This document shows, piece after piece, positions 1-31,395 of a DNA stretch of 64,000 nt. The first letter of the stretch is position 1. Each line of letters opens with the position of its first letter. The notes under the pieces were generated by a model. It had not been told where the DNA came from. It saw only the letters and a list, made by a program, of their open reading frames with translations, and did no database searches. Origin of the DNA: a virus; the IMG/VR virus record IMGVR_UViG_3300021960_000018; one strand, 5' to 3'. A program made the translations under genes and the position numbers.

Positions 1-228
1 AGAAATATCAAATCCAAAGGCGGCTCTATTCGCTTGGTGTGCATATTCTAAAAGTCTATTTTTAATCCCCTGATCGCCTACCCACCGAATATCACTTCTT
101 CTATAATCCGCTTTAACTCCTTTTTCAGAAATACCAGCTTCGACCAATGGATATTGTTCACAGATACCTACAATTTCATCGACAATAGCGGCATCGCCGC
201 CTGGCCACATTCTCCAAATTTGATTCAT
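1..228 (-). CDS. 2OG-Fe(II) oxygenase, N-terminal part (runs off window edge)
   Basis: Not in the ORF track. ATG at 228 overlaps the TGA of 225..620 (ATGA). Translates MNQIWRMWPGG...YRRSDIRWVGD...AHQANRAAFGFDIS; R-x-S-x-I-x-W and AN-xxx-FGFDI resemble phage PKHD-type oxygenases. The HxD...H motif would lie outside the window. Confidence 0.65.
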   Translation of the reverse strand, partial: MNQIWRMWPGGDAAIVDEIVGICEQYPLVEAGISEKGVKADYRRSDIRWVGDQGIKNRLLEYAHQANRAAFGFDIS

Positions 229-620
229 GATTTATCTTTCTGCCTTTGCAATTTTGCTTGTCTAGTTTTAACTGGATTACGTTTAATCCAATTAGCATTA
301 TCTTCTAGTTCCGGGTTATGAATACCATCACCAGTAGCTCTTCTATGTTGCGGCTCAGTTAATTCGGACTTACCACCTGCGGGGGTAGGATCTGGGGTTT
401 CAAGATCCGGTGTATTCGGGGTAGGTTGATTCATAGCAATCCATTCTTCTTCAGTATAGGGGTTAACCTGTTCAGAATAATGGAATCCATAATACATTCT
501 TTCATACGCACTATCAGCCATAAGGTGCCGATGTTCATCGACCACCCTTTTTCTTTTTTCTTCATCTATATCTTTAAGTATGTCAGAAAATATTCTAACA
601 GCTTCCAGCGTGACTTCCAT
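225..620 (-). CDS. hypothetical accessory protein of the rSAM/Cys-rich locus
   Basis: 131-aa ORF tightly coupled to its neighbours; Pro/Thr-rich middle, basic tail; no recognised family. Confidence 0.7.
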   Translation of the reverse strand: MEVTLEAVRIFSDILKDIDEEKRKRVVDEHRHLMADSAYERMYYGFHYSEQVNPYTEEEWIAMNQPTPNTPDLETPDPTPAGGKSELTEPQHRRATGDGIHNPELEDNANWIKRNPVKTRQAKLQRQKDKS

Positions 621-621
621 T

Positions 622-1092
622 TTAGATTCCTAGCAGTTTATCCAAATCTTTTACTGCATCGACAAATTCCCCACCAGTACCTTCAAGAAATTCTTTATAT
701 TTTAAAGCTTCTTCGTTCAATAATCCCTGTTGATTTACATGAGGATGTGGGGGATCGTTACAAATAGTTTGGTTAGGATTACGACCATCTGTCATCATCC
801 CCTGAGATTGCCAATTTTGCATTTGCTGATGTGCATCTGCTGGATTATTAATAGTTAAAAAATCTACACCAGCTTTCGGAACTTGTGCAACTGGTCCAAA
901 ATGTCTCATCAAATCAACCGCAGATTCAATATGTTTAAGAATCATAAAGCCGGCGATAGCTGCTTTGTTATTCTGGTGTCTACTCAATTCTCCAAATTTT
1001 TGAATAGTATCACTAATTAGTTCTACTACTTCAAGCGGAAGAACTTGATTTTCAAAATCTTCATCTTCCAAATTTTCATTTTCTTCAGCCAT
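622..1092 (-). CDS. hypothetical accessory protein
   Basis: 156-aa ORF overlapping the upstream rSAM stop; acidic N-terminus. Confidence 0.7.
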   Translation of the reverse strand: MAEENENLEDEDFENQVLPLEVVELISDTIQKFGELSRHQNNKAAIAGFMILKHIESAVDLMRHFGPVAQVPKAGVDFLTINNPADAHQQMQNWQSQGMMTDGRNPNQTICNDPPHPHVNQQGLLNEEALKYKEFLEGTGGEFVDAVKDLDKLLGI

Positions 1093-1981
1093 TCAAGACT
1101 TCCCCTTCTTTAATAAAATGGTCAAATGGTAACATATTTTCATCATTTCCCAATGTAGCAAAAGTTTCAGCAGCGTAATAAGTTTTTCTAGAATGATTAC
1201 CCGTACAACCATCACAAGTATCACAGAAAAATGAACATATAGGATGTTCTAATTTACCGGTATTCCACAGTTCTCTTAATTTATCTGCTTGTGCCTTTAC
1301 TACTTCTTTTTGTTCTTCATCTAAATATTCTACGATTGATGTAATAACCCTTTTTGGATTAAACGCCTTTTGAATACGTAAAATATCTGGAGCAAAATAA
1401 TGATAATTATGCTGCTGAATAGTATAACGAATTCTAAAGTTAATAGGTAAACCTGCTAATAATTTACAAGCTTCAATCACATCAGTAGAAGATTCTTTTC
1501 CACTTCTATATATTCTATCTTTATTACCTACGCCGTCGTATGAAATATCCCAAGAGGATCTTTGATTAATCTCTGGATGGGCGGCAATATAATTTTTAAA
1601 TTCCTCGAAAAATTTAGGTTTGGTCCAACGAATTCCATTTGACACTACATTAAAATGAACATTAGATTTCTTTCTAGTAGCATATTCCATAGACCAGCAT
1701 AAATTTTCCCATTCAAGAGTTACTTCACCACCAAACATAACAAATAAAGTTTGGGATTCCATTGGTTCATTATCAATAGCTTTATCAATAGCAGCCTTTA
1801 GTTTGGCCCGGGTCATAATCTGTTTAGGCTGACCTTCTAATACCTCATAACAATATGTGCATGCAAGATTACATTGATTCGTAAAATATAAAACGTTTAC
1901 TGCAGTATCAGGAACTTCTTTATCATTTTTATGTTTATTATCGTAATAAATTTCATCCTGAATTTTCGGGGCGTTTGACAC
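1085..1981 (-). CDS. radical SAM protein with shortened Cys-rich C-terminus
   Basis: CNLACTYC (CxxxCxxC), FGGEV, ISYDG; C-terminal CSFFCDTCDGC. Confidence 0.88.
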   Translation of the reverse strand: MSNAPKIQDEIYYDNKHKNDKEVPDTAVNVLYFTNQCNLACTYCYEVLEGQPKQIMTRAKLKAAIDKAIDNEPMESQTLFVMFGGEVTLEWENLCWSMEYATRKKSNVHFNVVSNGIRWTKPKFFEEFKNYIAAHPEINQRSSWDISYDGVGNKDRIYRSGKESSTDVIEACKLLAGLPINFRIRYTIQQHNYHYFAPDILRIQKAFNPKRVITSIVEYLDEEQKEVVKAQADKLRELWNTGKLEHPICSFFCDTCDGCTGNHSRKTYYAAETFATLGNDENMLPFDHFIKEGEVLNG

Positions 1982-2258
1982 CTTTTAAAGCCTCCGACAT
2001 ATTTGTTACAAATTCAGTGAAATCAATTTGATAATCATATAGATGGTTTTGAATTACTTCTTCATCTTTAATATACGTAATATCGACTCGAGCTAATTTT
2101 TTGGATGCCACTCGATTTTGTAAATCTTGAGCCAGTTTTTCAGCAGACATAATCTTACTAGCATCATCCTCTGATATGCTATTTATCAGCTGCTTTGTAC
2201 TCTGTACAAGATCGATAACTTCTTTCTTAAGAATTGGTACAGGTAGATCAGGTCTCAT
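1953..2258 (-). CDS. hypothetical protein between rSAM genes
   Basis: 101-aa, helical-looking ORF with ATGA overlap to the upstream rSAM. Confidence 0.65.
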   Translation of the reverse strand: MRPDLPVPILKKEVIDLVQSTKQLINSISEDDASKIMSAEKLAQDLQNRVASKKLARVDITYIKDEEVIQNHLYDYQIDFTEFVTNMSEALKGVKRPENSG

Positions 2259-3340
2259 CCCATGCTCCTCATTAGATTTCTAACATAACCCTGGAATGCA
2301 GGTTCATATTTACATTCTCTTAATAATCTCATTGCTTGTTCATTAATCATATGAAATAACTCGCATACAGAATCGACTGGCGCATTGTTATTATTAATCT
2401 GTGAATAGGTACAACCCATATTACAAACTTGACGAAGGCGACATGTATCGCACTTTTTATGGTTTAAGTTTGATAATGCATTTTGCCAATATTCATAATC
2501 GTACGTAGCACCATCCATTGGCATAAGCTTTTTAGATGCGAAGCGAGCACATGGATAAAATTTTCCCTCTGGTACTAGAACCGCACCGGAATAACCTGCA
2601 AAGCAACCGAATGGTCTTTTACCTTTTGCAAGACCGATAGTCATATCCTGTAATGCAAGAGATAAGAATCCAACCGAAACGTTTCTTCCATCTTTAAAAT
2701 ATTGGATGGTTCTATCGGTTAATTTAATTAGTTCCTGATAGAATGTTCTAAGATGATCTTCTCTCCAAACATTATCACGAACAATACAGAAATCTGGATT
2801 CCATACACCCCAATCAACCAAGAATTCTAAATTCTCGGTCATTGTTCCCGCATTACCGGGATAGATCATAACTTTACAACCGGATCTACCATGCTTAAGA
2901 ACAAGATCTTTTTTGGCTTCATAGATCTCCATAATATCGTTAAACCCTTCATTCGCTTTATGGTTACGAATTAAAGGTCTTGACTCATTTGATCCAATGC
3001 CGTCAAAGCTCCAAGAGATTGAGATTTCATTATCTTCAATAAATTGGCTTTTATACTCATCGATCATAGTCATATTAGTAATAATAACTAGATGTTTACA
3101 TTTAGGATCACTTTTAAAATATTTAGTAGCATGCTCAATTAATTCCCAATTAAGCATGGGTTCTCCACCAAAGAATGATACTGCATATTCATCATTATTA
3201 CTTCTACGGATTAATTCCTGTAATTCATCTACGGAATTATCAAAAGTCTCTTTAGTAAGAAATGTCGGTTTATTCACAACATAGCAATAAGGACAAGCAA
3301 GGTTACATTGTTCCGTTGTAGATAATTCTAATGTAAACAT
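2255..3340 (-). CDS. radical SAM/SPASM peptide maturase-like
   Basis: CNLACPYC, FFGGEP, SFDG; SPASM CFAG...YPC...CDTCRLRQVCNMGC...C. Confidence 0.92.
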   Translation of the reverse strand: MFTLELSTTEQCNLACPYCYVVNKPTFLTKETFDNSVDELQELIRRSNNDEYAVSFFGGEPMLNWELIEHATKYFKSDPKCKHLVIITNMTMIDEYKSQFIEDNEISISWSFDGIGSNESRPLIRNHKANEGFNDIMEIYEAKKDLVLKHGRSGCKVMIYPGNAGTMTENLEFLVDWGVWNPDFCIVRDNVWREDHLRTFYQELIKLTDRTIQYFKDGRNVSVGFLSLALQDMTIGLAKGKRPFGCFAGYSGAVLVPEGKFYPCARFASKKLMPMDGATYDYEYWQNALSNLNHKKCDTCRLRQVCNMGCTYSQINNNNAPVDSVCELFHMINEQAMRLLRECKYEPAFQGYVRNLMRSMG

Positions 3341-4627
3341 TTATTCCCCCGGAATCACAAATTCTTTTTTAGCACTAATGCTAGATTTAACTTCTGCAGG
3401 AATCATTACGTGTTTTTTATTCGGAGAAGATTTCTGAACAGTACGTTCTTGAATATATCTAGGATCAGTTGCTTCTACTTCTACAAACTGATAAGTTGTT
3501 TGCGGAATGGCCATCGGTTGTCCAGTAGGTCTTGCTGCCATCACCGCATTAATAATAGGCGTAGCGGTTTTAAATACTGAACACATGCCGGTATTAGCTG
3601 GGTTATCCTGCCAAGCTGTACCATATCCTTTTTCTTTTTTAGCAGATTTCTCATAAGAAGAAGCTGGGCATTTTAGACAGAATGGGCTTGAGCAACTATT
3701 GCACCAGACCTCTGTATTTTTATTAAAGTCATCCAGATAGCTTTTATATTTTGCGGACATATCTTTAATGACTTCATTTAGATCTTCTTTCATTACATTT
3801 CCTAAAGCGTGATCGCTTTGGTTCCTGTACATACACCCGTGACAGGGATAACTCTGACCATCAAGATCAATAGAGATAACGTCGATACCTGCAGAACAGT
3901 TTGCTCTCGATTGTCTAAACCAACCGAAAGTAGTAAGTCGCATATTATTATCTAAAATGTGCCGCCCGATTTTAAGTAAGGAAACTTTTAAATCACTTAA
4001 CCACTCTGCGCGATCTTCTTTCGACGCAGTAGAGTGAACGTCCGGTGTAGGCATATAATCTTCGCCAACTGATTGAAAGTCGAGGAAGGCTTCATACATA
4101 TATTTAAAATTATGCCCTGATAAGGTTGGCTTAAGAGAAGCGCTGATCCCATTATCTTTTAACCATAAGAAATAATCTTTTACATTCGCAGAATATTTAG
4201 TAGAAACACCGCCTGTAGTCAAACGCTCTTTACTATTAATTGGCTCACCGTCATAAGAAATCTGGATATGAAGCCTTGGCTGACGAGTTCTTTTAGGATG
4301 TTTCATAAACTCATCGCGAAGCCATAGCAACTCTTTTTGGTATTTCTTAATATAAACCCCGTTTGTATAGAACATAAATGTTACTCTACGGTCATCCATA
4401 AGACCCTTCATAACATCCATACAAAGTTTCATATTCATCATGGGTTCACCGCCCCAGAAGTAAATGTTAATGTCATTATCATCTACTCCGCTGATCTTTT
4501 CGATAAGATCCCCAGCGCTTAATTCAGTATGTTGCTGAAAAGCAGAAGATAAACCGCAGGCGTCGCCTTCAGAACAATAGGTACACTTTAAGTTACATTT
4601 ACTTGTTGTGTTGATTTCTATATGCAA
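3341..4627 (-). CDS. radical SAM/SPASM peptide maturase-like
   Basis: CNLKCTYC, FWGGEP, ISYDG; SPASM CSAG...YPCHGC...CNSCSSPFCLKC...C. Confidence 0.92.
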   Translation of the reverse strand: MHIEINTTSKCNLKCTYCSEGDACGLSSAFQQHTELSAGDLIEKISGVDDNDINIYFWGGEPMMNMKLCMDVMKGLMDDRRVTFMFYTNGVYIKKYQKELLWLRDEFMKHPKRTRQPRLHIQISYDGEPINSKERLTTGGVSTKYSANVKDYFLWLKDNGISASLKPTLSGHNFKYMYEAFLDFQSVGEDYMPTPDVHSTASKEDRAEWLSDLKVSLLKIGRHILDNNMRLTTFGWFRQSRANCSAGIDVISIDLDGQSYPCHGCMYRNQSDHALGNVMKEDLNEVIKDMSAKYKSYLDDFNKNTEVWCNSCSSPFCLKCPASSYEKSAKKEKGYGTAWQDNPANTGMCSVFKTATPIINAVMAARPTGQPMAIPQTTYQFVEVEATDPRYIQERTVQKSSPNKKHVMIPAEVKSSISAKKEFVIPGE

Positions 4628-4922
4628 GTTTAATCTCCTCTAACTCACGTTTTAAACTTAGAACTTCTTGTCTAAGTTCTTGATTGGCTTTTAATGTTAA
4701 TACCGCCAATCCTCGATGATCGACTCTTTTAGTACCATCACTATCTATCCATATTAAAAGAGGATCTACATTTTCTAATTCATGTGCTAGTACACCGATT
4801 TCTTCGTGTCTCGGTCTAAAAGGCGAATCTATTTTATAACTATATTTGTAAATTCCAACAGTAGATAATCTATCCGCCCATTCCATATTTTTCAAACTCT
4901 CTTGTTTTCCATTCAATTCCAT
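4599..4922 (-). CDS. stand-alone body of a peptidase S74 intramolecular chaperone, lacking the N-terminal SDxxxK motif (start may be 4886, MEWADR)
   Basis: YKYSYK...IGVLAHELENVDPLLI...KRVDHRGLAVLTLKANQEL plus coiled coil fits the S74 pattern Y-x-W/Y-K...G-x-I/L-A-Q/H-E...VdY...AiqEL. Confidence 0.78.
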   Translation of the reverse strand: MELNGKQESLKNMEWADRLSTVGIYKYSYKIDSPFRPRHEEIGVLAHELENVDPLLIWIDSDGTKRVDHRGLAVLTLKANQELRQEVLSLKRELEEIKLAYRNQHNK

Positions 4923-5256
4923 TATCAGTTAGAAATTGTTCAACTTCGCTTCGAGTGACCCCGTCATATTTTAAAGTATAGGTATAACTTCTATTTTTCC
5001 ACATACAACATTCAGCAGCATAATTAAAAGTACCGGGCATAGGCTTTCGAGTAGTATTTTCTTTTTTACTCATTATAATAAGAAAGTTATTTGTAACGAT
5101 CTTTGCTCCATACTTATTCCATTCTGAAATATCTGGTAATGGTGTTTCTGGATCTACTTCTATTACCATCCCAGGTTTTAAAAAGCCTCTAACTTCTGTA
5201 AGAGCTAATTGATTAATACCCTTATCCGAAACTAATGTCATTATAGATCCCCCCAA
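4870..5256 (-). CDS. hypothetical accessory protein
   Basis: 128-aa ORF in the coupled operon; the start may be the internal MTLVS. Confidence 0.65.
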   Translation of the reverse strand: MGGSIMTLVSDKGINQLALTEVRGFLKPGMVIEVDPETPLPDISEWNKYGAKIVTNNFLIIMSKKENTTRKPMPGTFNYAAECCMWKNRSYTYTLKYDGVTRSEVEQFLTDNGIEWKTREFEKYGMGG

Positions 5257-5801
5257 AATTCATCCCATGAGGCTTTATCATCTGGACCGTGGGGTCTACA
5301 GTATTTACCATTAATTAATTCGCCTTCTCCTTTGAAATTGGGATAGATGTTTGCAACTAAATGAGGAGGAAAATCATAATCTTCGATTCTAATAATGCCC
5401 CACATAGAGCTCGGGAACATTTCCCCACCTAAATAAATCGCAGGATATGTCGTATGTCTACCAATGTGATCAGGATCGGTACGATTATATAAAGGCATGT
5501 CACCAATTTTTAGACTGGATGGATCAGCGCCTTCGATAAAATCAAATCCGAAAGCATTAAAATCTTCTAATAGTAATGCCATGTTCGATGCACCGGCAAT
5601 AGCATAATGTTCAACATATTTGTTATCTAATAAATCTTGCCAAGCATTATTTTCAGGATATATTCTTACTAAAAGTTCAGCTAAAAAATATACGGGCATA
5701 CCCACGGGCGATCCCGCTACTTCCATTCTCAGTGCTCTATCTAAAGATTTTTTCCAGCATTCTAAAATAATAGAAGCCTTTTCCTGTTTCGTCCAGCTCA
5801 T
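5241..5801 (-). CDS. hypothetical protein, possible degenerate NlpC/P60-like fold
   Basis: LKIGDMPLY...HTTYPAIYLGG resembles NlpC/P60 L-x-P-G-D...H-x-x-I-Y-x-G; no DCS catalytic motif. Confidence 0.5.
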   Translation of the reverse strand: MSWTKQEKASIILECWKKSLDRALRMEVAGSPVGMPVYFLAELLVRIYPENNAWQDLLDNKYVEHYAIAGASNMALLLEDFNAFGFDFIEGADPSSLKIGDMPLYNRTDPDHIGRHTTYPAIYLGGEMFPSSMWGIIRIEDYDFPPHLVANIYPNFKGEGELINGKYCRPHGPDDKASWDEFWGDL

Positions 5802-6169
5802 TTATTCTTTTCACTCCATATCCAAAGAATGCTATAAAGATCGCTAAGAGGATTATATAATTGCCGGGATCTTCCACCTGCAGTATTTTTAGAAGTATCT
5901 GGTTTATTCTTAATAGTTGTCATAAATTCCGAAAGAACCCGGGAAACATTGTCAGCTCCAAACCTTTCTGTTAACGGACCTTCAATATATTGAACCCCAC
6001 TTTTATAAAATGCTGGGGTATCAAATTCCACTCCGTCTACTTCCTGCCCACAGATATTATCGTTAGTTAAATATCCCCACATCATAAACAATAATAAATC
6101 ATCACTATTAGAAACTTCTGAAAAATTTCTTTTAAAAAAATCACTATTTTCAATATGTTTTACTAACAT
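5798..6169 (-). CDS. hypothetical accessory protein
   Basis: 123-aa ORF directly after the Cys-rich precursor; ATGA overlap with the next gene. Confidence 0.7.
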   Translation of the reverse strand: MLVKHIENSDFFKRNFSEVSNSDDLLLFMMWGYLTNDNICGQEVDGVEFDTPAFYKSGVQYIEGPLTERFGADNVSRVLSEFMTTIKNKPDTSKNTAGGRSRQLYNPLSDLYSILWIWSEKNK

Positions 6170-6176
6170 CTTTCAC

Positions 6177-6710
6177 TTAGTTCCTTCCATCTAGTCCTTT
6201 AATATTTTCTTTGACAACAGGATCAGAGCAGCACTTGTTGCAGTTACAGGTACAGAAGTTACAATTGCACGTGCAGAAGTTACAGTTACAAGTGCAGAAG
6301 TTACAGTTACAAGTGCAGAAGTTACAATTGCATGTACAAAAATTACAGTTACAAGTACAGAAGTTACAGTTACAAGTGCAGAAGTTACAGTTACATAGAC
6401 ATGCTGCTGACCAAGTATTCAATTGAGTAGTTAACTGATTAAATTCAGTAGCTTGAATTACTGCCGATGCTGTAGAATAGGGGAAAGTACCAATTCTAGC
6501 TGTCAAATCTGCTGCAAGATTATTTAAACGAGCAGCAGTAATTGCATTTCCTGCAGAAGCAGCAGGCCAGTTAGTACTTGTAGTAGAAGCACCTCTACGT
6601 GTTAATTCATTGATAGCTTGATCCCGAATATTATTCCAATCAACGGCATCAATAAGAGTGCCGGCAGCAACTGTTGAATATTGGTTATTAGCAGGACAGG
6701 GCGATCCCAT
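6177..6710 (-). CDS. Cys-rich repeat protein, putative rSAM-modified precursor with C-terminal S74 cleavage motif
   Basis: ~105-aa N-terminus with three AGxxIxAxxxNxL-like repeats, then 7x CNCNFCT + CNCNKCC, then SDPVVKENIKGL; 27 Cys in total. Confidence 0.85.
   Translation of the reverse strand: MGSPCPANNQYSTVAAGTLIDAVDWNNIRDQAINELTRRGASTTSTNWPAASAGNAITAARLNNLAADLTARIGTFPYSTASAVIQATEFNQLTTQLNTWSAACLCNCNFCTCNCNFCTCNCNFCTCNCNFCTCNCNFCTCNCNFCTCNCNFCTCNCNKCCSDPVVKENIKGLDGRN
6228..6395 (-). repeat. 8 x 21-bp coding tandem repeat (CNCNFCT heptads)
   Basis: Units such as TGTAACTGTAACTTCTGCACT; units 1-7 differ only at synonymous positions. Confidence 0.95.
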
Positions 6711-6713
6711 GGT

Positions 6714-7913
6714 TTATACCTTCACTTCTACTTGACCTTCACCACTATTTATAGCGACGCCAACGGTTAGTCCTGGGAGATAGGTTTCTGATGCAATTCC
6801 AAATCCAGACCCACCTGCAATAATATAATTGCCCTTTTTAGCCAAACCATGAATTTTTACAGGAATTCTACCTTTAAGAGCAATAAACGGCCAAAGTGGA
6901 TCATTTTGCTTTTCATCATCATCGTTCATTCTTAATCCAGGATTTTCGGAAACAACACCTGCAAGAGGAAGCCCAACTTGGTATAGTGTGACTTCATTTT
7001 TGCCACCAATACCTAAAACCGTACCAATAGGATATTCTTTATCTGCATGATATCTTTCTGCGAGGTCAGCAAAGTTAGCTGACGTTGCATTACCAGAGAA
7101 AGTGCTACAAGTTAAAGTATTACCTGTAAGCGTCATTTGAACCGTACCACCGGTTCCAGCATTATTCTCGGTATCACTATGCGATCCGCTAGTAAACCAA
7201 CTAAATCTGCTGGCGGATCTGAAGTATAAAGTGTTTGATTGAACGCCCAAACCGTAGCTAGAAGCATAAAGATCTACCATCTGTCTAGTTGCAGACCCGA
7301 ATGATATTTTAGAAGAAGTACCGAATTGCATATCGGTACCAGTAAACGCATCAGTAGTATCACTACGAAGGAATGATAGACTGTCAATGCCATCAAGTGT
7401 ATCTGCGTTTGATGGTCCTGGAGGCCCAACTGGTCCGGTAGGTCCCGTAGGACCTTCGGGACCGGTAGGACCAGTCGGTCCGGTTGATCCAGTGTCCCCG
7501 ACTGGAATAGTAAAGTCGAATACAGCAGCCGTTGATGTACCAGAGTTTGTAACTGATACCGAACCACCCGCTGGACCTGTAGTAACAGTTCCAACAGCAA
7601 TTGTCCCTGTTGGCCCGGTAGGTCCATTAGGTCCATTAGGACCAGTTGGTCCGGTTAAACCTCTAATCCCCCGAGTTAACCCAAAGTTAAATGTCGCAGC
7701 GGTTGTATCACCAGAATTTGTTACAGTCGGCGTTTGGTCGGAATCTAATAGAGATACAGTGCCAATAGTAATTGTTGCAGCAGTACCCTTTGGAGCATCT
7801 TTAAATGACGTGGCTTTCCAAATACCAGGATCAGAGTAATACGTATAGGTATTACCATTTATAGTATAAACCTGTCCATTCGTAGGACTGCCAGGAAAAT
7901 TTAATCTAGCCAT
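6714..7913 (-). CDS. tail fibre with collagen-like G-P-T repeats and C-terminal peptidase G2-type chaperone
   Basis: N-terminal [12 protein letters not shown] fibre motif; GPT/GPN triplets; C-terminal FADLAERY...GVVS.NP...[10 protein letters not shown]. Confidence 0.8.
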
Positions 7914-9541
7914 TATGCTCCTGCTCCGTATAGTGTTTTAACAGCAGATCCTGCTGAGTTATATATGACAAGCGTTACTGCACTTTGCAACATTGCTTGA
8001 TTGACCTGAACCTCGGAAACTTGCCCTCCGGCACTCGTTGAACCAAGAACCCGGTTGGCTGTTGCCACATTTTGCATACGGTTATATGTTACTGCATCAA
8101 ATGCAATCTTATCCGTAGTAACAGCCGAATCGGCCAATTTAAGATTAGATACGATGCCATCTGGGAGAATAGAAGGCGAAGCTTGAACCCATTGGGAGGT
8201 ATCACTATCTTGGAAGTAAATGTAAAGATCCCCAGCTGAATCATCCCACCAAAGCGCGCCAGAAGAAGGAGATGCAGGCGGGGTAGTACCAGTAGGAACA
8301 GCAGCCGAAGCCGCGATTGTAACTGTATCAGTAGTTGCATTCGTTGTAAGAGTAACACCAGCCCCAGCAGCTAATGTTAAGGTGTCATCATTTGTATCTG
8401 CTACAATAGTTGATTGACCGCTAACTGCAATATTTTTAAAGATATTCTGCGAAGAACCTTTATCGGTGTTAGTAATAGTGATATCACTATCAAGCGGATT
8501 GTTAATGCTAAACGTTGCACTTCCGCTAATACCGGATCCAGCAAATACCTTAATTGTACTATTATACACGGTTGGGATCGTTGGCGTATTCGAGAAGTTA
8601 TTATAATTTAAATAATAAGATCCAGCTTGTCCGCCTAATGTATCAGCATCCACTCCGCTTAGAGTATTAATAAACGAAGCATTAACTCTTAAATCGATAT
8701 CGCTATCGACTCTTGATTTCAAATAATATAGATTAGTTCCTTCGGATAAATCGGTAGTACTAGATGCGGCGATTGCTACTCCGAAATCAGAATCAAATCC
8801 TAAATAAATTCCAGATAGATTTCCTGCAGTTAATGTTCCGGCAATCGTAACATTGCCAGAGCCATCTTTTGATACAAGAGTACCAGAAGTTGGCAAAGTA
8901 ACTGAAGTATTTCCTGATGTAGTTAAAGTAGTTGTATGTGCACCAGAAGTAGTGAATGCACCTCCAAGAGTTAACCCGCCCCCAAGTGTAATTGTCTTAT
9001 CGCCATTTTTAATATCGAATGTTAATAGTCTATCTTGGGTAAGAGCAGTTGTACTAGTCGATGCGAATCTTGTATCATAACTTGTAGTTGTAGTATCTCT
9101 AAGACCGAACGTAGAAATCTTAGTAAGAGATGCAGGTCCAGTAATAGTAGGACCAGTAATAGTAGGAGACGTTAGTGTTTTATTAGTAAGAGTTTGAGTA
9201 GCACCAATACCCACAAGAGTTTCACCAGAAACGGCGGCATTAATCTGGTTAAATGTCGAAACTAAAGTGTTATTTGATAGGTTAATGGTTTTATTCGTTA
9301 AGGTTTGGGTAGAAGTTAGATATGCAACTTTTGAAGAATCTACATTGATGGTAGCAGTAGCTTCATGAGAACCACTACCGGTTACTATAATACCATTACC
9401 GTGAATAACCCCAGCTAAGTATGGCCCGCTAGTACCGGAGTCTAGCGGGATTACCGATGCATCGATGATATTTGTAACCGTAGCAGAATCTAGACCTTGA
9501 GCTAGAGACGTGCTTAAGAAACTGCTTAGTTTAACTACCAT
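7913..9541 (-). CDS. tail fibre/virion structural protein
   Basis: TQTLTNKT repeats, [12 protein letters not shown] module, PxSPxxGxLWWD module; Ser/Thr/Gly rich. Confidence 0.8.
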
Positions 9542-12478: not shown

Positions 12479-15400
12479 CTATCCTAGTGCAATTGCATAT
12501 GCGATTGATTGTGTTTGTGTTGCAAAACTAGCAACGTCTGCTGAATCACCTTTTAATCCCTGTGGTCCTCTTTGACCGATAGATGAGTAAATGTTCCATG
12601 TGTTATTTATGTAGATAAATTCAACTATACTTTGTCCCAAATCTAATTCAAAGTTATCAGAATATCCTTCGATCGTCGAACCGTTACGATTAACTAAGAC
12701 CGTATTAGCGCCACTCCAGTTAGATACATCGATTAATTTAACATAATCCCCCGTTGTAGGATTAATAGGCAAGGTACATTGTACCTGCCCGTTCGTTGTA
12801 TTTACTGCATATCTACCAGCTGAAACAGCAGTGAAATCGGAATCATATACGGTATAATTCGTCGAGAATACTCGGAAGTCAGAATCGAAGCCAAGATATT
12901 GACCGCGTAGCCTACCAAAGTTCCAAGTAGGAAGATTCCAACCAGGTCCTCCAATATTAATAGTAGTTGCAGGTGGGGAACTATCTAAGGTGTCCTGAAT
13001 CAATCCATCAAAGACATACCATTCACCGTTTGTAGCATCACGAATAAAACCAGTGTGACGGGATGTTGTACCACCATCATCAGAGTAGTGACCAATAATA
13101 CCGATATCCACTACGTCGTCAGTATTACTATCTGCAACGTGAATGAATGAGCTATTAACAGAAAGCGTAGACTGTGATACAGTTGTTTGAGTACCAGCAA
13201 CGTAAAGGTCGCCTTCGATAACCACGTTATTCAGAACAGTCATACCGCTGAATTGGACGGAGTCGTTGGTGCCTACTGCTTGCCCAATGCTAATTTGACC
13301 GTTAGTAAGTGTTACGCCCGTACCCGCGCTGAAGTGCGACCGCACCTCCGCCGCGCTCGGGCCCGTATACGTAAGAACGCCAGTAGTAGCATTATATGTA
13401 ATAGAACCGTCACCACCATTATCACTTATGCTAATTGCATGACGAGCAGTAGATGTTGTGGTAGCAGAGTCGTAATACTTATTAGTAGAACCTTGTGGAA
13501 GATCGTCAGTAGTCGAAGCACCAAGATCAGAATCAAATCTTGCTGTAGTATAATACTTATTTGTGCCTTCTGCAAGAGCAGTAGTAGTGTGGTTAGCAAT
13601 GCTAGAAACGGTGCCAGTTACGCCCCCGATAAACTTACCAGTGCCATTTGTACCTGCTGTGATATTATTTGCAACAACGATATCCTGTGCTCTGATAGTC
13701 TTATCAACACCTAGACCCCCGACCAGCGTAACCGATGCCGAGGTTTTTGTGGTTGCTTCAGTTGAAGATTTAAATGAAGTATTACCAGTATTTGCTGCGA
13801 TTGTAAGAAGATCGTCACCTGTGGTTAAACCAATAGGGCTGGTGCCCATATTTTTTCTAAATGCAAATCCAGTTGCAGCAGCTTGAGTACCAAATACGAA
13901 TTGAGAATTAGGAGTAACTCCGATAGCATGCGTATATTTGTTATGAACACCGATACCAATAATAGAGGCTGTGGTAGAATCTTGAGATACAAATTCAAAT
14001 AAGGTTTCAGTACTATCTCCTAGACTTCTATCATGATTGAATGAAAGTCCGCCGTATTGCTGACCGTAAATAGGAGAACTATCTACAGTAACCGAATTAA
14101 ACGTAACATCCGCAGTTGTTCCAACATCCTGTCCAATTGCGATCTGGCCTGAAGTAATTGTAACACCGGTTCCTTGGGAGAAGTGGGCTCTGACTTCTGA
14201 AGCGGAAGGTCCAGTATAGGTAATAACACCAGTTCCGGAATTATAGGCGAGAGATCCATCCCCGCCAGCATCTGTTACCGAAATAGCAGATCTTGCTCTG
14301 GCATTAGTAAAGTATTGGTTTGTACCTTCAGCTAAATTTGTAGTAGTATTATCGGCAAAATCAGAATCGAATCTTGCTGTAGTATAATACTTATTTGTTT
14401 CACCTTCAAGAATATCATCTGTATCAGGAATATGATCTTGTCTAACAAAGATAGAACCATTAATCCCATCTTTTTTAGTAACAACAGCAATTTGTTGAAC
14501 GTGATTTCCAACGGAGGGCTTAACGTTGGTTAAAGCGCCTTTAGTCGAAGTATGCATATAGAGGAAATCGCCTTCATTAAATGCAGACGTATCAATACCT
14601 CTAACTTTACCGTAGATAGTAATATATCCAGCTTCATCTGAATTAAAATCTTGAGTAGTAATACCCAAAATCTTTTCAGGGTCAAATCCTACAGAATTAG
14701 GATCACACTTAGAAATCCAAATAGTATCAAATCCGGCACTATCGAACATAACCAACGAACCGTCTGGAATGATTTCAGTCGATTTAACATACATATGTTG
14801 TTCTTGGCCAACTTGCAGGGTAACACCTGTTCCTGCATAAGCTAAGTCAACCGTATGATCAACGTTATTCCAACTAAAGGTCGCATTGTTACCTAGTCCG
14901 ATAGCTGTTAAATGACCGTCACCGATATCGGAATCCGCTCTGGATCTATAATAAAATTTATTAATTGAACCTTCAGAGAAGTCATCAGTTGTATTAGGTC
15001 TTCCTGTGATATTAGACCATGCTACTGAACCGATAAATTCTGAAGCTTGTACTGGGGCAAGAGTATATCCTGTAGCACTTGTATTAACATAGGTGCTATC
15101 GATAAACTGTTGAGTTGAACCTTTAAAGAATTTCCAACGACCGTCTGTAGCATCATGGAATACACCAGAGTTTAGTGTTTGCCCGCCTGAGTAATAGCTA
15201 CCAATAAGACCCACGTCAACGTATGTTGTCGCACTATCGTTAAGAATAATAAGTGGGCTGGCAGTAGAAACCGAAGCAACGTTATTAACGGTTTGCGTTC
15301 CAGTAACCGTTAGGTTTTCAACCGTGACCGAAGCAAAGTTTACGCTGTCTTTATTATAAAGGTTCGTCCAATTAAGTAAACCGTCAAATTCCCCAGCTTT

Positions 15401-19319: not shown

Positions 19320-19327
19320 TATTTATA
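19320..19327 (-). promoter_or_regulatory. T4-type late promoter TATAAATA (fibre operon)
   Basis: Exact TATAAATA on the minus strand in the intergenic gap. Confidence 0.8.
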
Positions 19328-19862: not shown

Positions 19863-20879
19863 TTATTTATCCCTAGGATGATTTAACAGATAAGAATCCG
19901 TTGAGGGGCATTCTATTGAAAATCTAGATAAACGATCAAGATTGTCTATAATTTCTTTAATATGATCTGGGCTATTTGTATCTATCATACTAATGACTGG
20001 ATAATTGTAAAGTTTTCCATCCGGAAAAAGATGTTGTACTCTTCCACTATCAGATATTGTTCTACCATATAGATGATTTTTAATATCCATATATCTTTCA
20101 GATAAGTCCATAGTATCTGCAAACGGATTACGATAAAGAATAGAATGATCTTTTGCTGGTCTACCTATCCCAATAGTAGGAATACCTATGTGCGGCGCCA
20201 AAGAATAAAAAGAACCGGTATAAGAAAAATGTGCTTTTGCTTTTAAAAGAGTTCTATACACATCTTCATATTTTTGTGTATAATCTAGATATTTAATGTC
20301 TAAATTTTTTTCCGAAGCATAAGTCTCGATTGTATTAATACATTTTTTTATATTAATTCTATTCCAAGAAACTTTATTAGGATTTGCTTCGGGTTTTTGA
20401 AATGTGATATAGTTTTCTGTATTATTTTTATTCCATTGTTCTTTTGTCGGCCATAACCAAAACAGACTAAATGTTCCATCAATGTTAATATCCATCTCCT
20501 CACCGGTATAGACAGATATTCTCATTCCTATATTTGGAAGTTTAAAATTGTTAATCATCCAATAGATTCGATCCACAGATGATTCGCTATCTTTATGCCC
20601 ATAGATATTCCAAAAACAAGCGGGGGTTAATAATAAGACTATATTAACTATATCTGTCGATCGCATTAGTCCATCTTGCTGCATAAGATGCGCATCACAA
20701 AACATTTTTCCTATTTTAGATACTTGAGTTACCACTGTGTGGATAGAATGCCGATCAAATCTTACGATATAACTCTGGCCTAATTCTGCTCTTTTCCCAT
20801 CAGATTCACAATTAATATAAATGGTTTTTAAATGTTCAACATGCATATTGCCTAAAGTCCATATATTCGTCTGCTTCAC
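19863..20879 (-). CDS. putative GT-B glycosyltransferase-like protein (paralog of 27865..28827)
   Basis: LDYT...KAKAHFSYTGS..SLAPHIGIPTIGI resembles the GT9 C-terminal motif; true start probably ~20846. Confidence 0.45.
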   Translation of the reverse strand: MKQTNIWTLGNMHVEHLKTIYINCESDGKRAELGQSYIVRFDRHSIHTVVTQVSKIGKMFCDAHLMQQDGLMRSTDIVNIVLLLTPACFWNIYGHKDSESSVDRIYWMINNFKLPNIGMRISVYTGEEMDINIDGTFSLFWLWPTKEQWNKNNTENYITFQKPEANPNKVSWNRINIKKCINTIETYASEKNLDIKYLDYTQKYEDVYRTLLKAKAHFSYTGSFYSLAPHIGIPTIGIGRPAKDHSILYRNPFADTMDLSERYMDIKNHLYGRTISDSGRVQHLFPDGKLYNYPVISMIDTNSPDHIKEIIDNLDRLSRFSIECPSTDSYLLNHPRDK

Positions 20880-22404
20880 ATGCCCATTTACTCTTTTTAC
20901 GAGAGGCTACGTGTTCATCACCATATTGAGCAATGGGACTAGAAAAGAATTCCTCTTGGTATATTTTTTCGTATTTAGAAAGATCTTTTGCAGCGTCGAT
21001 CTCTGGCCACATACTTTCTTTAAAATATGCGTAATATTTAAATTTCTCAGTAAGATCCTGCATTTCATCCAACTGCAAATAGGGTTTCGGCATTCTCATA
21101 AATGGTAACCCCTGGAATCCCCCGTTGCTACCAATCTGATCCTCTTTAATAAATCCATGCTCTAGTGCTACTTTCCTTAGACCAGTACCATGATATGGAA
21201 CAAATAAAGAAACGCCCAATCCATCATATCCTCCGATATCTTTACAGAGTCTAGCAGTATCCATTACCATAGATCTGGTTTCTAGAGGTAAACCAATAAT
21301 AACATTCATACCATAAGGAATACCAGAAGCATTCATGATTTCTGCCTTTTTATAATATACTTCTTGTCTCACATTTCTTTTTAGATAATTAATACGATAA
21401 TACTCATTACCGCTTTCTAAACCGAACTGGATTCTTTCACAATGTCCCTCTTTCATTGCGGCAAGAATCTCTTCATCAATATCGTCAAATCTAGTATTAC
21501 ACCACCAGGGAATACCAGCATCTTTTAAAATATCTAAAAGAGGAAACAATTCCCTTTTTGGCCTAGCAGTAAACGAATCATCTAAGATAAACCAGAATTG
21601 AGGATTATTATCTTTAATAGTTCTTTCTATTTTTCTTTTAACAGAATCTAAAGAATCTCTTCTTACAAATTTTTTATCCATATCACGAGTAGTAGGAGAA
21701 TTGCAATATGTACAGCTATATGGACAGCCCCTATAAGTTTCTAATTGTAGTGTTCGTCTAACTTTTCCTCCTATAGGTCTATAGAATCTTTTTTCACTAA
21801 ACAATCTGTAATTAGTATAGTACTCGGACAAGTCTACTAGAGGCTGTGGAGGATTTTTTAATATTGTGCCATCTTCATTTTTAATCCACAATCCCTTTAC
21901 ATCCTGAATAGATTCGCCGCCCTTCATTTTACGAATAACATCTCTTACGACATATTCGCCCTCATATCGACACATAACTTTTACTAGTGGATTGGCAATA
22001 ACAAGATCAGGTGCATTAATAGGAAATACGCCGCCCACAATATGAGGAATATTTAGGTGGTTAACCGATTCTAACATTTTCATACCATCAAAGTAAGTAT
22101 CCTCGACGATGGATAATAGAATTAAGTCCGGTTTATATTCATTGACCTTTTTCACAAAATCAGGAATCATTTCTTGTGTAGGCTTTAACATTTCAAAGGC
22201 GTCTTCGTAATCAACCATAGCTCTACCGGCACCCAACTGTTCTTTACGAGTCTGGGCATCTGCAAAGCTTGCGTCATCATATGTTGATGTTTCGAATAGC
22301 TGAAATTCAACTTCTTCCCTGTCGCAAATATCAGTAAAGTATGCTACTGATAAAGGTGGACTTAGCATCATGGGAAGATTTGGATAAGCCATTAATATTT
22401 TCAT
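20836..22404 (-). CDS. B12-binding domain radical SAM protein
   Basis: N-terminal PPLSVAY...VGGVFP...EGE domain, then RGCPYSCTYC, DDSF, GLESG, IIGLP.ET, PYHGT. Confidence 0.88.
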   Translation of the reverse strand: MKILMAYPNLPMMLSPPLSVAYFTDICDREEVEFQLFETSTYDDASFADAQTRKEQLGAGRAMVDYEDAFEMLKPTQEMIPDFVKKVNEYKPDLILLSIVEDTYFDGMKMLESVNHLNIPHIVGGVFPINAPDLVIANPLVKVMCRYEGEYVVRDVIRKMKGGESIQDVKGLWIKNEDGTILKNPPQPLVDLSEYYTNYRLFSEKRFYRPIGGKVRRTLQLETYRGCPYSCTYCNSPTTRDMDKKFVRRDSLDSVKRKIERTIKDNNPQFWFILDDSFTARPKRELFPLLDILKDAGIPWWCNTRFDDIDEEILAAMKEGHCERIQFGLESGNEYYRINYLKRNVRQEVYYKKAEIMNASGIPYGMNVIIGLPLETRSMVMDTARLCKDIGGYDGLGVSLFVPYHGTGLRKVALEHGFIKEDQIGSNGGFQGLPFMRMPKPYLQLDEMQDLTEKFKYYAYFKESMWPEIDAAKDLSKYEKIYQEEFFSSPIAQYGDEHVASRKKSKWACEADEYMDFRQYAC

Positions 22405-23360
22405 ATTCTAAACTCTTTCATACTGAAAGCCCCTCCAGTTAATTTGTCATAACTTGTTTCAAAGTTAGACCAAACCAATGCTTCTGGCGCGTCATATAAC
22501 ATATCACAGTTTTTGCAAAAGTCGATTTCATCAAAGCGATGGTCTCTATGCATTTGTCTTAGCCATTGATATTTATCCCCGTTCCAAACCTCTTCTATGG
22601 TTTGATCTGATAAATGACCTAAGACGCCTTTGCTATCTTGTCCCAATACCATACAGCAAGGAACCACGGCACCTTGTTTACCATCATTCCCGCCCGCGCG
22701 AACAATTAGGTCAGGAGAAAATGGTCTACCGCAAGATCTTTTCTCTGGTTTCTTTCTCCAGTTAATCTCATCATACACCCCGGACCAATTGTGCATTTTC
22801 CAAATTGAAGACTTAATACCGGGAACATGATTAATCCAATTATTCTGATATTCCTGGGATTCAAACTCTGCTTGATTATTATCTAGTATAAGATGATAAG
22901 ATCCAATTTTACCTGCGCCTCCATATTCAATAGCGGCATTAGCGTTATCCATAACTTCATAAAAAGCGTCTTTGCTCATCCACTTGTGATAAAGTTCTGG
23001 ATTATAACCAGTAACAGAAATACGAGCGAAATGCAATCCTGCATCTACTACTCGTTTCATTAGATCATCTTTAAACCAAAAGCCATTCGTAATAAAACAC
23101 ATTCGGAATCCACGATCAGTACCAGCCTGAACATAATCGGCAAGTCTTTTATTCATAGTCGGCTCACCAGAACCTTCGAGATAGATTTCTTCTACCTCAC
23201 TATCTTTTAACTGATCGAGAGTATTACAAAACAAATCGAAGTTCATCATTCGTTTAAATGGGGATTCTCTACCACCCATTTCTAATGACTGTGGACAAAA
23301 CTTACATGAATAGTTGCATGATCCACATACTTCAATTACTGCCTTTTTAATCGGCAACAT
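22401..23360 (-). CDS. radical SAM/SPASM(twitch) protein
   Basis: CNYSCKFC, GSGEP, TNG; C-terminal CGRPF...VPCC...CKNC. Confidence 0.9.
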   Translation of the reverse strand: MLPIKKAVIEVCGSCNYSCKFCPQSLEMGGRESPFKRMMNFDLFCNTLDQLKDSEVEEIYLEGSGEPTMNKRLADYVQAGTDRGFRMCFITNGFWFKDDLMKRVVDAGLHFARISVTGYNPELYHKWMSKDAFYEVMDNANAAIEYGGAGKIGSYHLILDNNQAEFESQEYQNNWINHVPGIKSSIWKMHNWSGVYDEINWRKKPEKRSCGRPFSPDLIVRAGGNDGKQGAVVPCCMVLGQDSKGVLGHLSDQTIEEVWNGDKYQWLRQMHRDHRFDEIDFCKNCDMLYDAPEALVWSNFETSYDKLTGGAFSMKEFRI

Positions 23361-23370
23361 AGTGGGTTCC

Positions 23371-23490
23371 TTATTCGTCTAAATCGTCTTCGTAAATAAA
23401 ATTATAAGTTCGATCCGGTTCCTTTTTGCGGAATCTACTTAAAAACAGTAGGATTCTATATTTCCAAATTCTTAGTTTTTTTATTTTCAT
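23371..23490 (-). CDS. small basic protein ending ...NFIYEDDLDE (39 aa)
   Basis: Not in the track. ATG overlaps the TGA of 23487..24377; MKIKKLRIWKYRILLFLSRFRKKEPDRTYNFIYEDDLDE fills the gap. Confidence 0.65.
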   Translation of the reverse strand: MKIKKLRIWKYRILLFLSRFRKKEPDRTYNFIYEDDLDE

Positions 23491-24377
23491 AGAGTTGATC
23501 CTATATGTTTGATAAAATGTTCAGCCATAAATTCTTGACCTAATTTATTTGGGTGCCCATCCGTTGGCGATATAACATGTTTATCATGCTCATCCCAGTT
23601 CCAATTTGTTAAAACATGACCGCCAAAGGTTTCTATAAATGGCCATCCGATAATCTTAGAGTAATATTTAGGGTCTTGATCTATCTTTTTAAAATATGGA
23701 TTTTTTAAAAATTCTGTGTTAAAATTATCTCTGTCTACCATATAAGGATCTTTTAAATCGAAATTTCTGACTTGCGATATATATTTTGCATACCTAATTC
23801 CTTGGTATCTGTCAAAGCTGAATTTTCCGTCAACTGATGTTGGTGAAGGAAGTGTTACACCTGAAGCGTGGGGAGCAAACGCAAGACCCACTGTAATAGG
23901 AATATTTAAAAGTTCACAGGTATCTATTAATCTAATTAATAGTTTAAAGTTATAATCTATAAAGAGTCTGGTATCAAAATAAATTTGAAGACCCAAATCT
24001 ATGATATATCTTCTTATATTATAATCTTCAGCACTCTGATTAGGATCTGGATATCCGTTTTCCATTGAAAACTGAACAAATTGATCGTAGGACATTTGAT
24101 TCGAAGAAGAAAAAACTCTAAAATTTTCATCTTCTGGAAATTGCGCATAAAATCTATAAAATTCCGTCATTGCATATAATAAATGCTTGGGTTTATTATT
24201 TTTTTTCTTTATTAGAACATCTATAATTTTATCAAATTGGGAATCGTTAGCTCCTCCACCTACTCCCACATTATTAACTCTTATATTGTAATGTTTTCCT
24301 ACTAATGCGGGCCACACTGGAAAATCATATTGATCAGCCGTGAAACTGCAGCCTCCGCAAAGAATATAATCATTCAT
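23487..24377 (-). CDS. SGNH/GDSL-like hydrolase or acyltransferase
   Basis: GGCSFT, WP, NVGVGGGAN, C-terminal DGHPNxxG. Confidence 0.72.
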   Translation of the reverse strand: MNDYILCGGCSFTADQYDFPVWPALVGKHYNIRVNNVGVGGGANDSQFDKIIDVLIKKKNNKPKHLLYAMTEFYRFYAQFPEDENFRVFSSSNQMSYDQFVQFSMENGYPDPNQSAEDYNIRRYIIDLGLQIYFDTRLFIDYNFKLLIRLIDTCELLNIPITVGLAFAPHASGVTLPSPTSVDGKFSFDRYQGIRYAKYISQVRNFDLKDPYMVDRDNFNTEFLKNPYFKKIDQDPKYYSKIIGWPFIETFGGHVLTNWNWDEHDKHVISPTDGHPNKLGQEFMAEHFIKHIGSTL

Positions 24378-31036: not shown

Positions 31037-31395
31037 TCTTCATCGTCCAAATATCGAGAACACATTACCATACAAAGTCTATGTGGGTTATCAGTATCCC
31101 AAGATTCTGGCAATGTCTTTTTAAACCAATCATGATTTAAAATATCTTCTAATGAATTGTTCATTAGATTTAGTTCTTTTTCGTTCTTATAATACTCTTG
31201 CATTACCGGATTAGTAATATCATCTACACCTCTATGAAGAATATCAGGATCGTTATACTTACCAGTAACTCTCCACTTATATCCTTGATTCGCAAGATAG
31301 CAGCATGGCCAAACTTGTTTATCAGGGTTTACTAGAAACTTATCTTCTTCCATCCATCGACAAACAATATTATTTTTATTCGGAGTGTTGCTCAT
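31033..31395 (-). CDS. stand-alone SPASM/twitch-like Fe-S domain
   Basis: VC...VNPDKQVWPCCY...LEDIL...CMVMC. Confidence 0.7.
   Translation of the reverse strand: MSNTPNKNNIVCRWMEEDKFLVNPDKQVWPCCYLANQGYKWRVTGKYNDPDILHRGVDDITNPVMQEYYKNEKELNLMNNSLEDILNHDWFKKTLPESWDTDNPHRLCMVMCSRYLDDEE

Follow-up and report, generated by a model that had tools for sequence, protein, structure and literature searches.

The window analyzed here, a stretch of 64,000 nucleotides, corresponds to positions 4251-68250 on the minus strand of the 157,283-bp IMG/VR virus record IMGVR_UViG_3300021960_000018, which carries direct terminal repeats and has a completeness rating of 100%. Its first 6710 positions hold a gene cassette (Table 1) that encodes a Cys-rich protein with tandem heptad repeats, three radical S-adenosylmethionine (rSAM) enzymes, here called A, B and C, and the probable detached body of a Peptidase_S74 chaperone. 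The two genes 5' of the Cys-heptad gene match tail-fiber families of PHROG. Just past window position 1, the record continues with the remainder of a 2-oxoglutarate (2OG) oxygenase gene, followed by T4 gp14 neck, gp15, terminase, sheath, tube, portal and scaffold genes. From these neighbors and the tail-fiber matches it follows that the phage is a T4-like myovirus, in which the Cys-heptad gene is placed between tail-fiber and neck genes. A first-pass annotation of the DNA had described the cassette as a system resembling those for peptides that are synthesized ribosomally and modified after translation (RiPPs), with the Cys-heptad protein as precursor. Its 177-aa open reading frame (ORF) with an N-terminal region of ~105 aa, and the order and spacing of the ORFs, were all found as described.

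Table 1. Features of the cassette in window coordinates, listed in the direction of the coding strand
Feature	Position	Strand	Remarks
T4-type late promoter motif TATAAATA	6746..6753	-	Lies within the end of the fiber gene before the cassette; 35 nt upstream of the precursor ATG
Cys-heptad fiber-type protein	6177..6710	-	177 aa, 27 Cys; N-terminal domain, heptad array and tail SDPVVKENIKGLDGRN
Heptad array, 7 x CNCNFCT + CNCNKCC	6228..6395	-	Tandem Repeats Finder and codon comparison
First strand of Peptidase_S74 intramolecular chaperone (SDxxxK...), on the heptad protein	6180..6227	-	MAFFT alignment
123-aa ORF	5798..6169	-	No detectable homolog; placed where relatives have a ~125-aa ORF beside the heptad gene
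186-aa ORF, function unassigned	5241..5801	-	One weak homolog beside the heptad gene of locus L036
128-aa orphan ORF	4870..5256	-	Pfam and PHROG scans and locus comparison
Free-standing S74 chaperone body	4599..4922	-	107 aa, C-terminal helix; Pfam, PHROG and alignment
rSAM enzyme A	3341..4627	-	428 aa; CX3CX2C at residues 11-18, full 7-Cys SPASM, no N-terminal RiPP recognition element (RRE)
rSAM enzyme B	2255..3340	-	361 aa; full SPASM; best match PapB end to end, best PDB match CteB 5WGG
Conserved accessory protein between B and C	1953..2258	-	101 aa; motif HLF[DE]Y..D[YF]..FL..M
rSAM enzyme C	1085..1981	-	298 aa; CX3CX2C at residues 37-44, C-terminal CX3CX2CX2C in place of full SPASM
156-aa orphan ORF	622..1092	-	Candidate system member only; Pfam scan and locus comparison
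131-aa orphan ORF	225..620	-	Candidate system member only; PHROG scan and locus comparison
2OG-Fe(II) oxygenase (PF13640, 2OG-FeII_Oxy_3)	1..228	-	First 76 of 181 codons; runs off the window start

The Cys-heptad protein starts with a three-helix domain (residues ~5-105) and continues with the heptad array (residues 104-161). Seven perfect CNCNFCT units span residues 106-154 (window 6395-6249), and the variant CNCNKCC follows at 6248-6228. The eightfold CNCNFCT core proposed earlier hence exists as an array, but only seven of its units are perfect. Tandem Repeats Finder gave a period of 21 bp, 7.6 copies and 85% nucleotide matches. The seven perfect heptads are written in six DNA versions, and all differences between them are synonymous, which points to selection on the repeat peptide rather than to recent slippage or chance. 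Judged by its codons, the repeat peptide is under purifying selection in its exact register. Two C-x-x-N motifs are offered by each heptad, one from C1 to N4 and the other from C6 to N2 of the following unit. In an AlphaFold2 (AF2) monomer prediction, the N-terminal 100 residues form three helices with high confidence (pLDDT, the predicted score in the local distance difference test, 85-92); the heptads reached a pLDDT of ~40, so that no usable model of the rod was obtained. A Foldseek search with this model found no match in the PDB at E ≤ 0.001 and only weak matches to uncharacterized viral proteins in BFVD. In NCBIfam, no model matched the protein.

Single-protein scans of IMG/VR with the heptad protein gave no confirmed relative. 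A word-based search found 77 relatives about as long as the window protein and 6 that are longer, and a profile search of 1.84 billion representatives yielded 656 clusters (50% identity) at E ≤ 0.001, 116 at E ≤ 1e-30. Neighbor clusters in the ESM Atlas were 99-100% viral, and by these sequence comparisons the family looks virus-only. In its members, a conserved E..RRG helix lies within a variable N-terminal domain, and a pre-repeat helix and C[ND]C[ND][YF]C[TP] heptads follow. In a family logo of 305 heptads, C1, C3 and C6 were invariant (100%), positions 2 and 4 were Asn or Asp in 96% and 94%, respectively, position 5 was aromatic in 98% and position 7 was Thr in 76%. Literature searches found no description of a CNCNFCT-type repeat, of this protein family or of its link to rSAM enzymes.

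The C-terminal parts of these proteins give hints about their nature. Directly after the last repeat, 47 of the 84 family proteins show the start of an S74 domain (SDxxxK, as SDxRLK), and many members with a fused S74 domain pass PF13884. In two long members (P0082, P0085) a Hint autoprocessing domain takes the place of S74, again directly after the repeats, and 18 of 84 proteins end right there. C-terminal autoprocessing modules of the S74 and Hint type belong to trimeric fibers and spikes, not to exported peptides. At the locus of a Hint-type member (L051:10001-11416), four rSAM genes flank the heptad gene. Two further loci carry tandem heptad-S74 paralogs behind one A-B-x-C set, four in L011:12660-15257 and three in L012:9489-11555, and the N-terminal domain differs in each paralog. 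This arrangement suggests one maturation machine for several fiber variants.

Heptad gene and enzymes were consistently found together. Single-protein scans of IMG/VR with enzyme B gave no confirmed relative; a B profile search succeeded and led to 33 viral loci. An ORF with the heptad C[ND]C[ND][YF]C lay within ~3 kb of B in 30 of these. As to the three exceptions, the contigs of L030 and L032 break off on the side where the gene would be expected, and L010 keeps both ends of the gene around a deletion. Compared with L029:12638-13378, the L010 stretch (12500-13200) retains the N-terminal and S74 parts and has lost the heptads and ~280 nt with a broken frame; we take it for a natural deletion variant, and it could alternatively be an assembly collapse. 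In the reverse direction, starting from heptad proteins, flanking rSAM genes were present in all seven contexts inspected, which included S74-fused, Hint-fused and bare proteins and jumbo-size contigs. Gene order varies (A-B-x-C-pre, pre-A-B-C and B-C-A-pre, with pre for the heptad gene), adjacency stays.

The enzymes fall into three separate ortholog groups, each 40-55% identical between loci and only 22-27% identical to one another. In the related loci, orthologs of A are 40-46% and those of B 49-57% identical to the window's enzymes; the heptad proteins of those loci are only 35-41% identical. The best cellular relative of B in 185,579 species genomes was 25-28% identical, and none of 80 loci around cellular B relatives contained heptads. 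Like the heptad family, the module as a whole thus looks virus-only from sequence searches. Given this strict co-occurrence across divergent phages and through changes in gene order, heptad gene and A, B and C very likely form a functional unit, in agreement with what had been proposed for the Cys-heptad gene and the rSAM triplet.

Cultured relatives of this module exist. Among GenBank phages, close B homologs (~36%) occur only in 15 Campylobacter Firehammervirus records, and the same 15 records carry a heptad protein, gp140, which is PHROG 26958; the window protein matches PHROG 26958 at E 2.5e-24. Phages CP220 and CPt10 were described as T4-like, with 11-12 rSAM genes of unassigned role (Timms et al. 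2010, PMC2853527). In CP220, gp023 is the B ortholog (36% identical) and gp136 the A ortholog (31% identical, 2 kb from gp140), and a C-like gene lies elsewhere. Like the cassette of the window, CP220 and CPt10 thus hold A and B orthologs, a C-like gene and a heptad protein; in contrast to the tight cassette of the window phage, the genes are dispersed in CP220. CP220 gp140 (L049:8933-10537) has 534 aa with a pre-repeat region of up to 290 aa and six CDCNYCT units, and it differs from the window protein in this length, in an extra Cys-rich C-terminal half and in the lack of S74. This half of 200 aa shows irregular CxC[ND] motifs (CTCNA, CSCQ, CRCNA, CVCD) like a degenerate continuation of the repeats.

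A homolog of gp140 was detected in phage particles. Gene 3-9 of phage IBB_35, 1605 bp long and located between a poly-dA gene and RnlA, was annotated as 'hypothetical protein, no homologs' (PMC3322345), and its product was among 38 proteins identified in purified virions by electrospray ionization tandem mass spectrometry, at 2.6% coverage (PMC3322345, Table S2). By position and length we take gene 3-9 as the gp140 homolog, 94% identical to CP220 gp140. Neither of the two papers (PMC2853527, PMC3322345) tied the rSAM genes to the repeat protein.

On this basis, the heptad protein is likely located in the virion. Two fates had been proposed for the modified peptide, display on the particle or release at lysis. 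Display is strongly favored, because S74 or Hint domains are fused directly after the repeats and because the Campylobacter homolog was found in virions by mass spectrometry; release at lysis fared poorly. A classical phage RiPP, with the N-terminal 105 aa as leader and a cross-linked Cys core that is cut off and released at lysis as toxin or signal, would account for the leader-plus-repeat layout, for the presence of three maturases and for the 18 of 84 relatives that stop right after the repeats. We nevertheless consider it very improbable. Families of RREs, proteases and transporters were absent from 1-6710 and from the sequence just beyond, so that leader protease and exporter are both missing, and no transporter family matched among the cassette proteins, as had been noted before. 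The presumed leader folds confidently and grows to as much as 290 aa in CP220; the processing domains S74 and Hint lie C-terminal to the repeats; a homolog sits in virions, and the gene lies between fiber and neck genes. With a folded 100-aa domain for a leader, and with none of the families that stand for leader removal, RRE-based recognition and export in canonical RiPP systems, the label 'RiPP-like' fits only loosely, namely in the pairing of repeats with maturases.

In the window phage the S74 domain is split. Ser-Asp-x-x-x-Lys follows directly after the last repeat of the precursor (S162-D163-P-V-V-K167), and in a MAFFT alignment with the fused S74 domains of relatives, SDPVVKENIKGLDGRN aligns to SDxRLKxNIxFIxxxN. 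The precursor has Val where relatives usually have Arg (SDxRLK), and its competence for cleavage therefore is uncertain. The rest of the domain appears to be encoded 1.25 kb 3' of the precursor: the ORF at 4599-4922 aligns with the remainder of fused S74 domains from family members that pass Pfam, matches tail-fiber C-termini in PHROG (E 1e-8) and covers the body only of Peptidase_S74 (PF13884; 17.3 bits, E 0.006, below the gathering cut-off of 22 bits). Since three tightly packed orphan ORFs separate the two parts, an intron is unlikely. The same split occurs, apparently independently, at L053:10001-11484, where two tandem heptad genes ending in YSDIRLKK.IEY. are followed by one 99-aa Peptidase_S74 ORF; here, one detached body appears to serve two client genes. 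A trans-acting chaperone hence appears to be a recurrent natural form, and the S74 body of the window presumably also acts in trans. A complex prediction with three copies each of precursor residues 80-177 and the S74 body scored 0.16 (mark 0.34), which is evidence neither way. In tailspikes and fibers of the endosialidase and T5 pb1 type, Peptidase S74 (PF13884) likewise stands directly after a trimeric C-terminal segment and starts with Ser-Asp...Lys, and many heptad-family members have it fused in this manner. Unlike these, the domain is divided here and in L053, with one strand on the client and the body separate, and in L053 with one body for two clients. A Cys heptad array beside rSAM enzymes, moreover, is not described as client for S74 proteins.

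The three enzymes all match Radical_SAM in Pfam, and SPASM was matched by A only. The Cys residues C11/15/18 plus C244, 262, 309, 312, 317, 320 and 349 in A, and C12/16/19 plus C246, 264, 297, 300, 306, 310 and 326 in B, are 96-100% conserved in 24 to 28 orthologs, with 100% for the seven SPASM cysteines. A and B hence both combine the CX3CX2C core with the 7-Cys SPASM set that defines the rSAM/SPASM class, and C has the core and a 4-Cys motif only. Pfam and ortholog alignments therefore bear out the reading of three rSAM enzymes, two of them with full SPASM. An RRE has no space before the rSAM motif, which starts at residue 37 in C and as early as 11-12 in A and B.

PapB (NF047865) was the top NCBIfam model for all three, with 150.8 bits for B, 69.5 for A and 62.2 for C against a cut-off of 340. 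B residues 4-317 align to model positions 5-323 of 330, the next matches of B are QhpD and other peptide maturases, and the best match among solved structures is CteB (5WGG). By sequence, the nearest counterparts of the three enzymes are SPASM enzymes that form Cys thioethers, namely PapB, QhpD and CteB. TIGR04115 gave 79.4, 39.6 and 39.1 bits (cut-off 350), and TIGR04463, the model for CrpC-type maturases of Cys-rich proteins, matched C alone and marginally (26.5 bits, cut-off 525). Membership in the CXXX-repeat system of TIGR04114/TIGR04115, to which the first-pass annotation had pointed, thus could not be upheld, and the same holds for the PapB family. As all scores lie far below the curated cut-offs, A, B and C represent new families within the SPASM maturase class.

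Several characterized systems may serve as models for the chemistry. PapB forms Cys thioethers (PMC12373016); QhpD does so on a protein subunit and CrpC on CrpA, a Cys-repeat protein with C-X-X-Q/D motifs (PMC13692751). CrpA of Methanococcus voltae repeats its Cys motif ten times and is predicted to form a β-helix (PMC13692751). PapB with PapA (the ranthipeptide freyrasin) and CteB with CteA (a six-Cys-in-forty-five, SCIFF, peptide) share the rSAM core and 7-Cys SPASM with phage A and B. Substrates of the PapA and CteA type carry tandem Cys repeats with Asp/Asn-type acceptors and several links each, and the phage heptads resemble them in their repeats. In contrast to these pairs, the phages have three enzymes per substrate rather than one, and the substrate is a structural protein of 150-530 aa with a folded N-terminal domain and C-terminal S74 or Hint, found in viruses only, and not a short exported peptide. 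CrpC/CrpA and QhpD/QhpC are alike in that SPASM rSAM enzymes set ranthionine links on proteins, and the phage heptad offers its two C-x-x-N motifs per unit; however, CrpC and QhpD use an RRE, which the phage enzymes lack. The phage repeat also differs from CrpA in having 7 residues, not 17, and in being viral, virion-associated and equipped with an autoprocessing chaperone.

Other reactions on the heptad protein must be weighed here, i.e., an aromatic-to-Cβ C-C cyclophane, conversion of Cys to formylglycine as by anaerobic sulfatase-maturating enzymes (anSMEs), epimerization or another radical change. They would agree with the 98% aromatic position 5 of the heptad and with the weaker NCBIfam matches, which include the cyclophane-forming YhhB and AmcB, DarE, DynA and an anaerobic sulfatase maturase; an anSME was also among the PDB matches, and as all scores stay under their cut-offs, they do not fix the class of reaction. 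The thioether formers PapB, QhpD and CteB, however, gave the strongest matches and the only ones from end to end, and the heptad pattern of three invariant Cys and near-invariant Asn/Asp at C-x-x-N spacing is similar to C-X-X-Q/D and CX3D, motifs found in proven thioether substrates, so that we regard a different chemistry as unlikely.

The Cys spacing of the heptads (C-x-C, C-x-x-C), on the other hand, is typical of metal thiolate sites. The rod could hence be a metal-binding, Fe-S or disulfide-laddered element, or an Fe-S store or scaffold for the at least 10 rSAM enzymes of the phage, with the neighboring rSAM enzymes acting elsewhere, on sugars or cofactors. Other rSAM genes of these phages indeed adjoin sugar-type enzymes (UDP-glucose-dehydrogenase-like, glycosyltransferase family 2, carbamoyltransferase, transketolase), and the CrpA operon is induced on pyrite (PMC13692751). 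Yet A, B and C remain beside the heptad gene as a specific trio when the gene order is rearranged, while other rSAM and sugar genes come and go, and the enzymes have peptide or protein maturases as their nearest relatives. A cytoplasmic Fe-S scaffold would also not agree with the S74 and Hint fusions or with the detection in virions. Together, these points make a metal or Fe-S role distinctly unlikely.

We hence interpret the locus, with a probability of roughly 0.6, as a late-expressed cassette for the maturation of a virion protein, in which three rSAM enzymes cross-link the heptad rod of a fiber-type protein, the links most likely being thioethers, and S74 is supplied in trans. Fused S74 domains of tailspikes and fibers drive trimerization and are then released. 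In the cassette, the folded N-terminal domain would probably dock the heptad protein on the particle or on the enzymes, and the heptads would form a rod that leads into the first S74 strand. The protein would thus be a small fiber-type structural protein and not a leader with a core. The ORF at 4599-4922 would supply the rest of S74 in trans, bring the repeat rod into trimers and come off afterwards. A and B have two auxiliary SPASM clusters each and C has one; through 5'-deoxyadenosyl radicals, the enzymes would remove hydrogen from carbons in the side chains or the backbone of the repeat residues, most likely at the near-invariant Asn/Asp of both C-x-x-N motifs per heptad. These carbons would join Cys sulfurs in sactionine- or ranthionine-type thioether bridges, and the product would be a covalently laddered fiber segment that withstands reduction and proteases. 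That the heptads are the substrate, that thioethers are the product and that trimers form, we infer; the chemistry is the weakest step of the proposal.

A number of points weigh against this interpretation. Thioether rings are normally put on unfolded peptides, and how this fits with S74-driven folding of a trimer is unexplained. All three enzymes score far under every curated cut-off, so that their reaction type is extrapolated, and none of them has an RRE, which leaves substrate recognition unexplained; the conserved 101-aa protein is not RRE-like either (helical AF2 model, low confidence). With heptads at a pLDDT of ~40, the geometry of rod and trimer lacks a model. The virion evidence comes from a distant homolog, 534 aa long and similar only in the pre-repeat helix and the repeats, at 2.6% coverage. 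Finally, these phages have many further rSAM genes, and adjacency could partly reflect a general rSAM gene island.

A more detailed version of the cross-linked fiber would assign one enzyme to each heptad Cys position, two for the C-x-x-N links and one for another. The outcome would be a trimeric, thioether-laddered needle at the distal end of the fiber, with a detachable trans S74 shared between paralogous clients; in such detail the proposal is doubtful.

Late expression would agree with the motif TATAAATA, which the window contains five times (6746, 19320, 34406, 37477 and 62116), always on the minus, i.e., coding, strand and in four cases just upstream of a start codon. Shuffled sequence would hold more copies (11.6 expected against the 5 found), and as a set the sites behave like putative T4-type late promoters. 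As one of them stands shortly before the precursor ATG, the cassette has its own late-promoter-like site, contrary to the statement that no promoter follows the one at 19320. Scans for sigma-70 promoters and terminators found no excess over shuffles.

Among the smaller proteins of the cassette, a conserved family, with members in 38 related loci, exists only for the 101-aa accessory protein; the window's other small ORFs are not conserved there. As a candidate for a discrete RRE, the 101-aa protein was rejected for now, its AF2 model being all-helical and of low confidence. The 2OG oxygenase had been counted as part of the modification system. With no homolog in any of 44 related loci, we rejected it as a component; it is probably just a neighbor. 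In the closest T4-like relatives (L003:17919-20612), the cassette is followed by genes for an Asp/Asn β-hydroxylase, an acyl carrier protein, a short-chain dehydrogenase/reductase, an enzyme like ketoacyl synthase III or chalcone synthase, and a phosphopantetheinyl transferase. The window lacks these genes, which could form a lipid or polyketide add-on. A UDP-glucose-dehydrogenase-like protein, whose gene stands first in the cassette of most relatives, is here encoded outside the window (G000:C1:105091-105933; E 3e-71 to the family profile). Particular to the window are the long seven-unit array of Phe type, the order pre-A-B-C, the split S74 with three intervening orphan ORFs, and the late-promoter motif of its own.

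Nearly unchanged copies of the stretch are present in metagenomes of estuarine, marine and aquatic origin; the 19 holders come from 9 studies dated 2018-2025, and 3 of these holders may be the source sample. Between estuarine populations, the cassette differs at 15 of 6300 positions (0.24%; window 1-6300). In the neighboring collagen-repeat fiber gene (6714-7913), 41 of 1107 positions differ (3.7%; window 6860-7966); the fiber diversifies while the cassette is conserved. Among the public runs holding the stretch, no RNA run is listed. One run labeled metatranscriptomic, with two small contigs (4511-4734 and 6482-6775), is probably DNA and not usable for expression. In GenBank phages, neither megablast with window 1-7000 nor tblastn with the precursor gave a match, likely because of low-complexity filtering and because the genome is absent there.

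The at least 10 rSAM genes of the phage include a second, unrelated cluster of seven (20836-32194, minus strand) between fiber and other structural genes. It comprises one B12-binding rSAM protein (HpnJ/PhpK-like), one rSAM/SPASM protein, a split rSAM and SPASM pair, a carbamoyltransferase and several paralogous unknowns. Three of its proteins match the N-terminal-twitch rSAM model NF033640, two of them above the cut-off of 170 (202 and 297 bits) and the third with 130 bits. The cluster had no BLAST match at E ≤ 1e-5 to the extra rSAM clusters of L008-type loci.

Thioether stapling by rSAM enzymes is known from small bacterial peptides and from very few cellular proteins (QhpC, CrpA). If a phage particle protein is stapled in the same way, thioether chemistry enters virus assembly. 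This would partly answer a question open since 2010, namely why phages of the CP220 type carry 11-12 rSAM genes, and a protein family confined to viruses, whose repeats follow a very simple code, would be defined. As cultured Campylobacter phages carry the module, the proposal is directly testable. A repeat rod that is proof against reduction and proteases, together with a trans-acting S74 chaperone, would also interest protein engineers. Should even the laddered needle prove true, it would be without precedent among viruses as a structural protein stapled by enzymes, and it would add a new principle for natural materials.

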